Shown here: piece by piece, positions 27,762 through 29,885 of the stretch | How the letters are laid out: the number at the start of each line of letters is the position of its first letter | Position numbering within the stretch: the stretch's first letter is position 1 | NCBI GenBank assembly: GCA_001824915.1 | Contig: MHTS01000024.1 | Coordinates: forward strand, 1 to 52,945 | Length of the DNA: 52,945 nucleotides | DNA from: Candidatus Wildermuthbacteria bacterium RIFCSPHIGHO2_01_FULL_48_27b | GTDB lineage: Bacteria; Patescibacteriota; Minisyncoccia; Minisyncoccales; UBA10102 | Direction of reading: 5' to 3' | Translations under genes and position numbers: made by a program | Notes under the pieces: model-generated | What the model was told of the DNA's origin: nothing | What the model saw: the letters and a program-made list of their open reading frames with translations, nothing else | Database searches by the model: none

Positions 27762-29885
27762 ATGCTTTTCTCTTATAATTGGCTTCAAGAATACATAAAA
27801 GGCAAACTGCCCGCGCCCGTCAAACTGGCTGAACTTTTGAATATGCACGCGTTTGAGGTAGAGGGAATGCAGAAAAAGGGAAGGGATACAATTTTCGACA
27901 TTGCAGTGCTGCCGAATCGAGCGCACGATTGTTTATCTCACACAGGCATGGCGCGCGAGATTGCGGCAATCTGCAAGTTAAAACTGCAGCTTCCAAAAAC
28001 AAAACAAATAAAAGTTCAAAAAGGCAGGCTTACGCCTTTGAAAGTGAAAATTCAGCCTGCCTCGCCGAAGACGACGAGTCAAGGCGGGCCTGCCTCGCAG
28101 CAAGGCGGGTCCGGAGAACTTGTGCCACGCTATTCAGCATTGGTTATCGAAGGCGTTAGCATTAAAAAATCACCCAAATGGGTGGTTGATTACTTAGAAG
28201 CCGTGGGAGTAAACTCCATTAATAACGTAGTTGATCTTACGAATTTTATAATGCTGGAAACCGGCCAGCCCTTGCACGCGTTCGATTATGAGCAAATTGA
28301 AGGGCGCACTATGAATGTGCGTGAAGCCAAAGAAGGCGAGAAACTGGAAACGCTGGATAACCAAGTATTTTCGCTTCCCGAGGGCGCGCTGGTTATCGAA
28401 GATGCCAAACGTCTCATTGACCTCGCGGGAATCAAAGGAGGAAAGGTAAGCGCAATTTCTTTGAATACGCAGAATATCGTATTGCAAGCGGCAAACTTCA
28501 ATGCAGTCGCTATTTACCGAACAAAATCACAGCTCAAATACACGACACAGGCAGCAGATATGTACGCTCACCAAATTGATCCCAATCTTGCCATGGAAGC
28601 GCTGGAACGCGCCTACGCGCTTTGCGCAGAACTTGGCATAGGAGGAAAAATAGCGCAAGTTGTCGATCTCTACCCAAAATCCGCCAGCTGGCGGATCAAA
28701 CGCATTACGCTCGATATGCAGTTTGTCTCATCGATCCTCGGAATACCGCTTTCGCAAAAAGAGGCAAAACGAATTTTAGAAAGCCTGGATTGCCAAGTCG
28801 CGCTCGCTAAGAATCGTCTGCAAGTAACTTGCCCCACGCGACGCTTGGACCTTACAATGCAAGAAGATTTGGTGGAGGAGATCGGCAGAATTGTCGGATA
28901 CGAAACCATCCCAGCTGCGTTCCCCATAGCCCCGATAGCCCCGCCATCGAAAAACACCGAGCTACTCTGGCTGTCGAAAATCCGCAATGCCTTTAAGGGG
29001 CTTGGCTTCACGGAGGTCTATAATCATTCTTTCATAGGGGATAAGGATTTTTCGACATTCGCGTATTCCGCGGCAGATAAAGCAAAGCTTGTTGAAGTTG
29101 AAAATCCTTTGAGCTCTGAATTTTCTCATCTGCGCGATTCTTTGCTGGAAAATCTGGTGAAAAACGTGCGCGACAACCAGAAGCAGGCCCGCCTTGCCGA
29201 GTCGAGGCAGGCCGAAACCATACGCATTTTTGAAACCGGGAATACATTTCGCCAACACAAAGGAAAATTCGCCGAATTCAATATGCTCGGCGCGCTTATA
29301 TACAATGGGAGTTTCTATGAGATAAAAGGCGTGTGCGATTTTATCTTAAACAGCCTTGGCATTTCGTCAGCATGGTACGACGAATACCAGGCGACAAGCG
29401 AAGAGAGCCGAGCCGAGATGTGGCATAAAGGGAAATCCGCAGAAATCAAGGTGGACGGCGAAGAAATCGGTTTTCTGGGAGAAATTTCAAGCCGCGTAAA
29501 CACCGCTTTGAAAATTTCAAAGCCGGTTGGCGCTCTACATCTGAATTTGGAAAAACTTATTCTGCTAGCTTCAGAAGAAATATCATATCGGGCGCCATCG
29601 CGATTTCCTGCTTCCACGCGCGATATTGCCATTTTGGTGCCTTCCCAAACAAAAGTTGCTGAGGTAATGAACGCAATGACCGGCGCGGGAGGCGCGTTGG
29701 TACGCGATATTGATTTATTTGATATGTACGAAGGCGAACATCTCGCGCAAGGAAAGAAAAATCTCGCCTTCCACATCATATATGAATCTGCGGAACGAAC
29801 GCTTACCAGCAAAGAAGTTGATACCCTGCACAATCAAATTATCAAAGCAGTCGAAGAAAATCCCGAATGGGAAGTAAGAAAGTAA
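27762..29885 (+). CDS. pheT: Phenylalanine--tRNA ligase beta subunit
   Basis: [12 protein letters not shown]..., B3/4 and B5 domain motifs, C-terminal FDMYEG...KNLAFHIIY. Carries two in-frame repeat insertions. Confidence 0.9.
28055..28110. repeat. GC-rich imperfect palindrome, two overlapping copies in-frame in pheT (orientation A)
   Basis: GCCTGCCTCG-N15-CAAGGCGG[GCCTGCCTCG]-cag-CAAGGCGGGT encodes [18 protein letters not shown]. Confidence 0.8.
29187..29212. repeat. GC-rich imperfect palindrome in-frame in pheT (orientation B)
   Basis: GCCCGCCTTG-ccgagt-CGAGGCAGGC encodes ARLAESRQA. Confidence 0.8.

Follow-up and report, generated by a model that had tools for sequence, protein, structure and literature searches.

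Ultra-short GC-rich palindromic units, in frame in housekeeping genes of a Wildermuthbacteria contig and recurring across uncultivated phyla

In bacteria of the candidate phyla radiation (CPR), the genomes are tiny and streamlined, and hardly any DNA lies between genes. The 52,945-nt contig MHTS01000024.1 of Candidatus Wildermuthbacteria bacterium RIFCSPHIGHO2_01_FULL_48_27b (assembly GCA_001824915.1; this whole stretch is called the window below) carries eight units of a GC-rich imperfect palindrome inside protein-coding genes, and raises the question of what kind of repeat colonises essential CPR genes and ends up translated. A preliminary description of the window had proposed an in-frame element of common descent, with the Rickettsia palindromic elements (RPEs) as its nearest precedent, in a CPR-like host. 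From the labels of the proteins nearest to those of the host (Candidatus Wildermuthbacteria, Nomurabacteria GW2011_GWA1_46_11 and Paceibacterota), the host is a Parcubacteria-type CPR bacterium (Patescibacteria), as had been suspected. As set out below, the units probably represent an ultra-short, selfish or near-neutral hairpin repeat family, similar to RPEs and to REP sequences (repetitive extragenic palindromes), that turns over quickly and survives in genes in the form of tolerated in-frame peptides.

Units of the window and their age

The 10-mer GCCTGCCTCG was found eight times, on the + strand at 28055, 28088, 35249, 41711, 49698 and 49719 and on the - strand at 5029 and 29203, exactly where the preliminary description had placed it. 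The chance expectation is 0.05, and none of 100 dinucleotide-preserving shuffles reached eight copies. The partner arm CAAGGCGGG lies at 28080, 28101, 41727 and 49741 (+) and at 5014 and 29188 (-), 1 to 15 nt downstream of GCCTGCCTCG in six of the eight units; at 35249 and 49698 the right arm is shorter, reading CAGGCGGG and TCGGCGGG. The arms were not fixed in this search, and exact conservation was 8/8 for the left arm and 6/8 for the right. The family consensus can be written as GCCTGCCTCG-loop-(GAGT)CAAGGCGG(GC). Measured from the G of GCCTGCC through GGCGG, the units are 24, 33, 21, 24, 21, 24, 21 and 30 nt long, all eight being multiples of three, and their density is about 1 per 6.6 kb. 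They occupy six sites, in rpoA, pheT (two sites), a dihydrofolate reductase (DHFR) gene, thrS and rpsP (Table 1), and Pfam confirmed each of these hosts, which had been named from the open reading frames (ORFs) alone. Within the window, no further degenerate copies rose above background. A candidate at 31289, GCCCGCCTCG, was discarded as native gyrB sequence that is conserved in a sister genome, and two additional matches to CAAGGCGGG are unrelated to the family, one (23838) lying inside another gene and one (33213) being a terminator-like hairpin.

The sister genome (GCA_016181405.1, contig JACOZJ010000003.1) is ~91% identical to the window in DNA and syntenic with it over ~43 kb, with a DNA identity of mostly 84-96% in aligned blocks and of 91% in the neighbourhood of rpoA. 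At pheT site 1, the two units of the window face a clean 54-nt gap in the sister, between TTCAG and TCC, and the pair is also absent from L121 and from 15/15 aligned orthologues, including relatives at 85% and 88% amino acid identity. The DHFR unit likewise faces a clean 21-nt gap, at TGC^GCC. At pheT site 2, the window has a net 24-nt insertion that is absent from the sister, L121 and the 15 orthologues. In rpsP, both genomes carry the first unit, which in the sister (GCCTGCCTCGCCAGCAGGGGAG, at the same place) has an intact left arm but has decayed in the right one; the second unit is window-specific, with no counterpart in the sister's rpsP tail. The thrS unit is present in strains at least 99% identical (L130, P0376) and absent from other orthologues, and it lies inside a hypervariable linker in which a clean boundary cannot be drawn.

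The rpoA unit has a different history. Orthologues at 71-90% amino acid identity have a segment of the same length whose DNA is a decayed unit: L251 shows 4 differences, L252 has kept the right arm, and L253 has kept most of the left arm. On the rpoA tree, ((window, sister 92.8%), L251 86%), L252/L253 75%, the sister lacks exactly 24 nt, and its sequence is the expected product of a deletion between CCT..CCT direct repeats in an L251-like allele. By these alignments, the rpoA unit is old, not a recent insertion, and was precisely lost in the sister. Concerted evolution refreshing this old copy is not claimed, as the count of changes fits neutral divergence (own estimate of P ~0.08-0.25 for no arm change).

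From the site-by-site comparison it therefore follows that units have been both gained and precisely lost, and that the copies of the window differ in age, with the pheT, DHFR and second rpsP units young and the first rpsP unit shared and half-decayed. The proposal that the copies would prove to be clean, lineage-specific insertions was borne out at pheT site 1 and in the DHFR gene, and absence from the 15 orthologues and the sister was found for all pheT units; it does not describe the old rpoA unit, nor the thrS unit with its missing boundary. Together, these comparisons show that gain and loss at the DNA level involve entire, sharply bounded units and take place on short evolutionary time scales. 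Most clear in-frame indels between window and sister in well-aligned coding DNA, moreover, consist of short GC-rich units belonging to this family or to similar ones.

Table 1. Host genes, units and partial units of the window, and loci elsewhere at which a unit is nested in another hairpin repeat
Feature	Position or locus	Strand	Remarks
rpoA	4281-5162		Pfam-confirmed host gene
rpoA unit, 24 nt, GCCTGCCTCGAGGAGTCAAGGCGG	5015..5038	-	antisense to rpoA; reads ARLDSSRQA; old copy
pheT	27762-29885		Pfam-confirmed host gene
pheT unit 1, 33 nt	28055..28087	+	sense; first of head-to-tail pair
pheT unit 2, 21 nt, short loop	28088..28108	+	sense; second of pair; reads PASQQGG
Partial second unit start GCCTGC	29183-29188		follows the pheT site-2 unit on the unit's own strand
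pheT site-2 unit, 24 nt	29189..29212	-	antisense; reads (Q)ARLAESRQA
DHFR/RibD_C gene	35046-35564		Pfam-confirmed host gene
DHFR unit, 21 nt, GCCTGCCTCGCCGGCAGGCGG	35249..35269	+	sense; reads PASPAGG
thrS	40240-42045	-	Pfam-confirmed host gene
thrS unit, 24 nt	41711..41734	+	antisense (gene on -); reads TRLDSARQA
rpsP	49426-49875		Pfam-confirmed host gene
rpsP unit 1, 21 nt	49698..49718	+	sense; reads PASPIGG; older copy
rpsP unit 2, 30 nt	49719..49748	+	sense; head-to-tail with rpsP unit 1; reads PASPNASQGG
Truncated third rpsP unit start, GCCTGC-AGA-GCAGGC	49749..49763	+	mini-hairpin directly after tandem pair
Unit nested in the ATTCCCGC..GCGGGAAT loop	L028, L050, L053, L195, L218, L233, L245

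The family outside this genome, its reading frames and its place in proteins

The element is not special to this genome but is spread over many CPR classes and some non-CPR phyla. A scan of GTDB with one genome per species gave at least 119 loci, and a scan of JGI metagenomes at least 120. The family set was defined as matches on contigs of <53% GC with family-like loops; matches on high-GC contigs are probably due to chance, their loops being unrelated and their locations being in native genes. The set holds ~150 distinct copies among the matches listed (149 analysed), and all counts given below for copies outside the window refer to these listed matches. The exact 25-mer GCCTGCCTCGCCGAGTCAAGGCGGG accounts for 27 of the 149 copies (own estimate of the chance expectation ~0.001) and the short form with the loop CCGG for 19, out of 69 distinct loop variants. 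CPR labels are carried by 37/69 low-GC GTDB loci, including Saccharibacteria, Moran-, Nomura-, Harrison-, Ryan-, Levy-, Curtiss-, Falkow-, Kerfeld-, Staskawicz-, Colwell-, Uhr- and Wildermuthbacteria, together with one single-cell genome. The non-CPR loci are labelled Omnitrophota (6), Bacteroidota/Ignavibacteria (10), low-GC 'Gammaproteobacteria' (4), Planctomycetota and others, and loop variants are common to CPR and non-CPR groups.

Spread by phages or plasmids is not supported, because the unit is essentially absent from their sequences: IMG/VR gave 7 matches, 6 of them on high-GC contigs and chance-like, and no match was found in GenBank phages or PLSDB plasmids. Searches of Rfam at gathering and lax thresholds returned three tRNAs and noise, with no match to the unit. 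The impression that no such element had been described from CPR bacteria agreed with a literature search, which found nothing linking CPR or Patescibacteria with REP sequences, MITEs (miniature transposable elements with inverted repeats) or palindromic elements, nor the motif in a relevant context.

In the window, the five sense units are all framed G-CCT-GCC-TCG (PAS) and read PAS..(Q/G)GG, and the three antisense units are all framed xCG-AGG-CAG-GCx (RQA) and read RL..RQA, which upholds the earlier claim of one frame per orientation. The companion claim that no copy is intergenic is correct for the window but uninformative, because ~93% of the window is coding (P ~0.65 for six sites all being coding), and elsewhere copies occur between genes as well as within them, with a quarter to a half located outside long ORFs. 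The frame bias, by contrast with any exclusive location in coding sequence, holds among the copies elsewhere. Units within ORFs of at least 150 codons were multiples of three in 35/39 cases in GTDB and 31/34 in metagenomes (pooled 66/73), compared to 12/31 and 27/43 outside such ORFs (pooled 39/74; pooled Fisher p = 4e-7). The six possible frames were used 32, 13, 9, 8, 3 and 1 times among in-frame copies (chi-square p = 6e-11), and the top two are those of the window, PAS..QGG (32) and RL..RQA (13), with 21 copies in the other four together; the avoided frames encode Cys/Leu-rich or Arg-rich peptides. Copies in coding sequence were sense rather than antisense by 43:23 (p = 0.019). Since copies outside long ORFs are often not multiples of three, we attribute the frame regularity to a selection or survival filter on translated inserts, not to a rule of insertion.

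The window units occupy loops, tails and the linkers between domains. The phenylalanyl-tRNA synthetase β subunit of the window, as modelled by AlphaFold (mean predicted local distance difference test score, pLDDT, 82), has insert 1 as an unstructured segment (pLDDT ~42) and insert 2 in the loop after helix 462-478, with pLDDT <50 at residues 481-483. The DHFR insert aligns with a variable loop of Thermotoga DHFR 1cz3. Mapping onto structures, which the preliminary description had proposed, therefore placed the pheT inserts in segments of pLDDT <50 and the DHFR insert at a variable loop. The rpoA, thrS and rpsP units are outside Pfam domains: the rpoA unit in the tail past the N-terminal domain (Pfam domains end at residue 232), the thrS unit in the linker preceding the SAD domain, and the rpsP units in the C-terminal tail. 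From these locations we conclude that the units are translated and that the proteins tolerate them in the form of short flexible peptides. Elsewhere, the hosts are again housekeeping genes, with rpoC, pheT, recG, dnaX, rho, atpA and pgm among them. The element-encoded peptides were found in none of 120 pheT, 120 thrS and 120 rpoA homologues and 150 rpsP representatives outside the window's own near-identical lineage.

Two of the host genes have features of their own. The rpoA of the clade has no C-terminal domain (no PF03118 match) and a Lys-rich low-complexity tail instead, and some more distant Patescibacteria rpoA homologues retain the domain. The thrS gene (40240-42045) is a mosaic relative to that of the sister (L129:10001-11806), with N- and C-terminal parts of >90% DNA identity and a catalytic core (~40571-41429) that blastn did not align to the sister, whose core resembles a different type of threonyl-tRNA synthetase; this pattern points to a recombinational replacement.

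Origin and spread of the units

The stem, GCCTGCCT/AGGCGGGC, is predicted to have 7-8 bp and carries a T:G mismatch. The T:G at stem position 4 and a C:A at position 9 are present in 6/8 window units; the earlier statement that the same two non-Watson-Crick positions recur in every copy holds for these six and fails for the units at 35249 and 49698 with their shortened right arms. When the right-arm position of the T:G was left free, and it alone varied, in a scan of metagenomes, G outnumbered A, which would restore a perfect pair, by 77:6 on low-GC contigs. Hairpin stability as the selected feature is weakly supported by the folding energies, and the perfectly paired variant is rare; because the T:G is kept 77:6 and the hairpins fold nearly as their shuffles do, conservation is at the level of sequence and asymmetry rather than stability. 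That the same 24-25-mer recurs in many lineages, together with the retained T:G asymmetry, supports the view, already taken in the preliminary description, that the units are DNA-level repeats of common descent and not independently selected hairpins.

In units with a long loop there is an inner palindrome, CTCGC-n-GCGAG, and after it a conserved unpaired (T)CAAG; the commonest loop, CCGAGT-CA, contains GAGTC, which short-loop units lack. The ends of the unit are sharp, with no flank consensus across the 149 copies: the upstream flank is unconserved, and downstream a C at +1 (64%) alone stands out. Head-to-tail tandems comprise 8% of the copies, and their neighbouring loops differ. The 3' flank repeats the start of the unit more often than control positions do (GC, 65% vs 25%; GCC, 24% vs 6%; GCCT, 14% vs 1.7%), and the truncated third start in rpsP agrees with this general enrichment. 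Seven or more loci (Table 1) have the unit placed precisely within the loop of another widespread hairpin repeat, ATTCCCGC-loop-GCGGGAAT(GAC). The unit is also part of intergenic clusters of several different hairpin modules in Omnitrophica RBG_13_46_9 (L012, L022, L104).

On these features we base a model in which the units would spread by DNA-level copy-and-paste that uses their asymmetric hairpin, with its conserved T:G mismatch and (T)CAAG bulge. Preferred targets may be hairpin loops, existing units and GCC-like microhomology, a preference that would explain the head-to-tail arrays, the nesting in other hairpin repeats and the partial starts after units. Judging from the flanks, copying could proceed from tandem or circular donors, or by microhomology-guided insertion into hairpin or GCC-like targets, and loss would probably occur by slippage between short terminal direct repeats. 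More tentatively, the family might be the footprint of an undescribed mobility system of very broad host range, the conserved hairpin being a substrate of a widely shared single-stranded DNA enzyme or repair pathway. If true, such a system would enable a 24-nt element to travel inside single phyla of uncultivated groundwater bacteria and from one phylum to another.

Several explanations compete with a repeat family, and we consider each of them improbable. The unit could be a recognition signal preferred by a host machine, such as a CPR DNA-uptake sequence or the site of a nicking or modification enzyme, and not mobile at all. The density in the window, the bias of reading frame in coding sequence (as is known for uptake sequences of Haemophilus and Neisseria), the strict conservation of the arms with the mismatch included, and the GAGTC contained in many units, within CCGAGT-CA in the commonest loop, would all suit a signal. 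However, the copies come as whole-unit insertions rather than point substitutions, GAGTC is missing from short-loop units, presence in Omnitrophota, Bacteroidota and CPR bacteria argues against a species-specific receptor, and neither head-to-tail arrays nor nesting in other hairpins is expected of a signal; we regard this explanation as unlikely. Slightly less likely still is an mRNA hairpin kept for a function, for example to pause translation where domains meet or to act as a signal for RNase or for stability. The T:G is a G-U pair once transcribed, making the sense-strand hairpin, but not the antisense one, fully paired, and both the sense bias noted above and the position of window sites at interdomain linkers are in line with such a role. 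One third of the coding copies are antisense, though, there is no Rfam match, folding energies are near those of shuffles, orthologues manage without the unit, and nothing visibly replaced the one that the sister lost; the milder peptide of the sense orientation explains the sense bias equally well.

We give a similarly low probability to there being no element, with palindromes made de novo by local mutation (template switching or hairpin-primed repair) or Pro/Ala/Ser/Gly linkers arising by convergence. Unrelated GC-rich palindromic in-frame insertions do occur in this pair of genomes (an 18-nt palindrome in gatB and the FDSAQGK/RQAQGK family of the sister, both described below), and the loops of the units resemble variable inner palindromes. 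What speaks for an element is that identical 24-25-mers, including synonymous positions, stand at unrelated sites in dozens of lineages, that both orientations are used and encode different peptides, and that no retrieved pheT, thrS, rpoA or rpsP homologue outside the near-identical lineage has the insert peptides. Artefacts of assembly, binning or sequencing are scarcely credible, even though the sources are metagenome assemblies and GC-rich hairpins can cause errors. Variants of the host proteins at 90-100% identity were found in independent assemblies (pheT on 12 contigs, DHFR on 11, rpoA on 23), with the insert peptides in all variants inspected (rpsP has one variant on record); the same inserts or units occur in independent NCBI, JGI, ENA and Logan assemblies, and a related unit in the single-cell genome L072. 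This breadth excludes an assembly artefact for practical purposes; an orthologous copy has moreover decayed in relatives, and the multiple-of-three rule applies inside ORFs and not outside them.

The reading that we prefer, of a fast-turnover hairpin repeat family surviving as tolerated peptides, has several points against it. Neither inverted terminal repeats nor a regular target-site duplication was seen at the clean junctions or among the 149 listed copies, and no transposase or recombinase was found in the 53-kb window (25 ORFs compared with Pfam); with all of these lacking, the mechanism of movement is something we can only infer. Predicted hairpin energies exceed those of shuffles by a modest 0.7-2.5 SD (z -0.7 to -2.5). 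Next to the unit at pheT site 2, a further six bases differ, the sister having GTTTTC where the window has GCCTGC, so that this is not a simple insertion, and on the alignment the event looks more like a 30-for-6 replacement than a plain 24-nt insertion. The polarity of gains and losses comes from one sister genome and a few outgroups. Both collection scans used a pattern that fixed both arms, and their listings are lower bounds; because of that pattern, arm constancy in these scans is not evidence. Placement in an ORF was judged by a stop-to-stop length of at least 150 codons with no gene calls, and the taxon labels of metagenome-assembled genomes are the submitters' own. Finally, classical REP families are species-specific, and the near-identity of the units across phyla is unexpected for a REP-like element.

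That same near-identity of a 24-nt unit points to horizontal spread or to a shared recognition machine. Because most clear in-frame indels between window and sister are such GC-rich units, they may be one of the principal ways in which loops, linkers and tails are added to CPR proteins; if the broad-host-range mobility system suggested above exists, elements of this kind would be a main source of indels in the essential proteins of streamlined CPR genomes, and of the growth of their linkers and tails. In metagenome-assembled genomes, the units yield spurious low-complexity peptides and alignment gaps, which annotators should be able to recognise.

Other insertions of a similar kind were seen in the two genomes. 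The sister's pheT (L120:10001-12097) contains, in frame, three inserts from another GC-rich family, CCCTTCGAC..GCTCAGGGyAAr, which reads RQAQGK, FDSAQGK or STGSGQA depending on frame and is also found in proteins P0016 and P0028. Three lineages that share 55-85% identity with the window have RQAQGK in the same loop of pheT, suggesting that insertions have recurred at a permissive site. In gatB (36526-36543), a window-specific 18-nt in-frame insertion makes a perfect palindrome, CCTGTCTGC/GCAGACAGG, whose first arm resembles the start of the main unit. The other insert families of the sister suggest that GC-rich in-frame insertion is general in CPR genomes.

The window has further repeats and differences in gene content. 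Intergenic arrays rich in TTCGTA/ACGAAT, for example AATTCGTATATTCGTATAAATTCGTAATTCGTAG, lie at 16797-16838, 32732-32769 and 38573-38646, between gatC and gatA, nusG and rplK, and miaA and the next ORF; in the array at 32736, 36 nt are absent from the sister, and the arrays may have a regulatory role or form another repeat family. A direct repeat of ~95 nt occurs twice at the contig end (52480-52575 and 52805-52899, 324 nt apart), and a related 27-mer, CGCTTCATAGCGGCGAA.., is found at 42757-42783 and 52907-52933, with a copy in a 424-nt gap upstream of dnaE that is conserved in the sister; neither the repeat nor the 27-mer had an Rfam or tRNA/tmRNA match. Gene content differs from that of the sister at 25706-26690, ~46260-47150 and 50072-50770, and the differences include a ~1-kb block of flavokinase and Lum_binding genes that is present in the window and absent from the sister, an Exo_endo_phos gene between dnaE and rnhB, and an AbiEii toxin gene. 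The window also has two mreB paralogues, at 10760-11776 and 15388-16509.

Comparison with known palindromic repeats

Two standard classes of repeat were set aside. The units are not MITEs, as they show neither a regular target duplication nor inverted terminal repeats and are far below 70-300 bp, and they do not form a CRISPR array, as the copies are dispersed or directly abutting, with no regular unique spacers. DNA uptake sequences (USS/DUS) are short over-represented motifs that occur inside genes in preferred frames. They arise by substitution and are lineage-specific, whereas the present units are whole insertions found in several phyla. The palindromic amphipathic repeat coding elements (PARCELs) are dyad-symmetric repeats in coding sequence, scattered over distant microbes in a punctate pattern that looks horizontally acquired (PMC2996958), and offer a precedent for horizontally spread palindromic coding repeats; they differ in having 25-residue units in long tandem arrays within accessory ORFs without assigned function, and are not single inserts in housekeeping genes.

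RPEs are roughly 100-150 bp long and confined to Rickettsia. Ogata et al. in 2000 reportedly found them to be translated, to occupy permissive surface positions and to encode no transposase, with the mechanism of mobility left unresolved. In the passages of PMC3733652 that deal with them, RPEs appear as palindromic repeats in frame in functional protein genes and as carrying a CGTC end tag. The window units resemble them in being in frame and compatible with the product (8/8 multiples of three, clean insertions, loops and linkers), and differ in being 21-33 nt long, in lacking the CGTC tag and in occurring across phyla. The RPE precedent named in the preliminary description is therefore best kept as a fair functional analogy, and the present unit would not count as a member of the RPE family, its length and end tag failing to agree.

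With REP sequences and the bacterial interspersed mosaic elements (BIMEs) that they form, the units share an imperfect palindrome of 20-40 nt, a GC-rich stem, a high copy number and clustering in arrays. The relevant passages of PMC3733652 report some REPs inside genes, and state that imperfections of the REP stem matter for recognition by REP-associated tyrosine transposases (RAYTs). Unlike REPs, the present unit has no GTAG/CGTC tag: these tags were at background frequency in the 149 copies, and CGTC or GACG stood within 8 nt of the unit end in at most 4/149. REPs are typically extragenic and downstream of genes, whereas 8/8 copies of the window are intragenic and about half of the listed copies elsewhere lie in ORFs of at least 150 codons. 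REP families are normally specific to a species or genus, whereas the present unit is nearly identical across phyla. Among the ORFs scanned in the 53-kb window, there was no RAYT (IS200/IS605-like Y1 transposase).

The GC clusters of yeast mitochondria (e.g., GC42) are short GC-rich hairpins in a less GC-rich genome, with conserved stems and variable loops; their units fuse with one another and are reshuffled, strains differ through rapid turnover, and the way in which the clusters move is unresolved (PMC4478555). The present units are similar in their conserved arms (in the eight units of the window), their many loop variants and their tandem and nested arrangement. The yeast clusters are, however, organellar, mostly intergenic and ~40 nt or longer, with a putative AG target duplication, while the present units are bacterial, are often in essential genes and show no AG duplication at three clean junctions. 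The closest systems in their way of working are RPEs, intragenic REPs (PMC3733652) and the yeast mitochondrial GC clusters (PMC4478555); what is new here is the extreme shortness of the unit together with a near-identical sequence across many uncultivated phyla.

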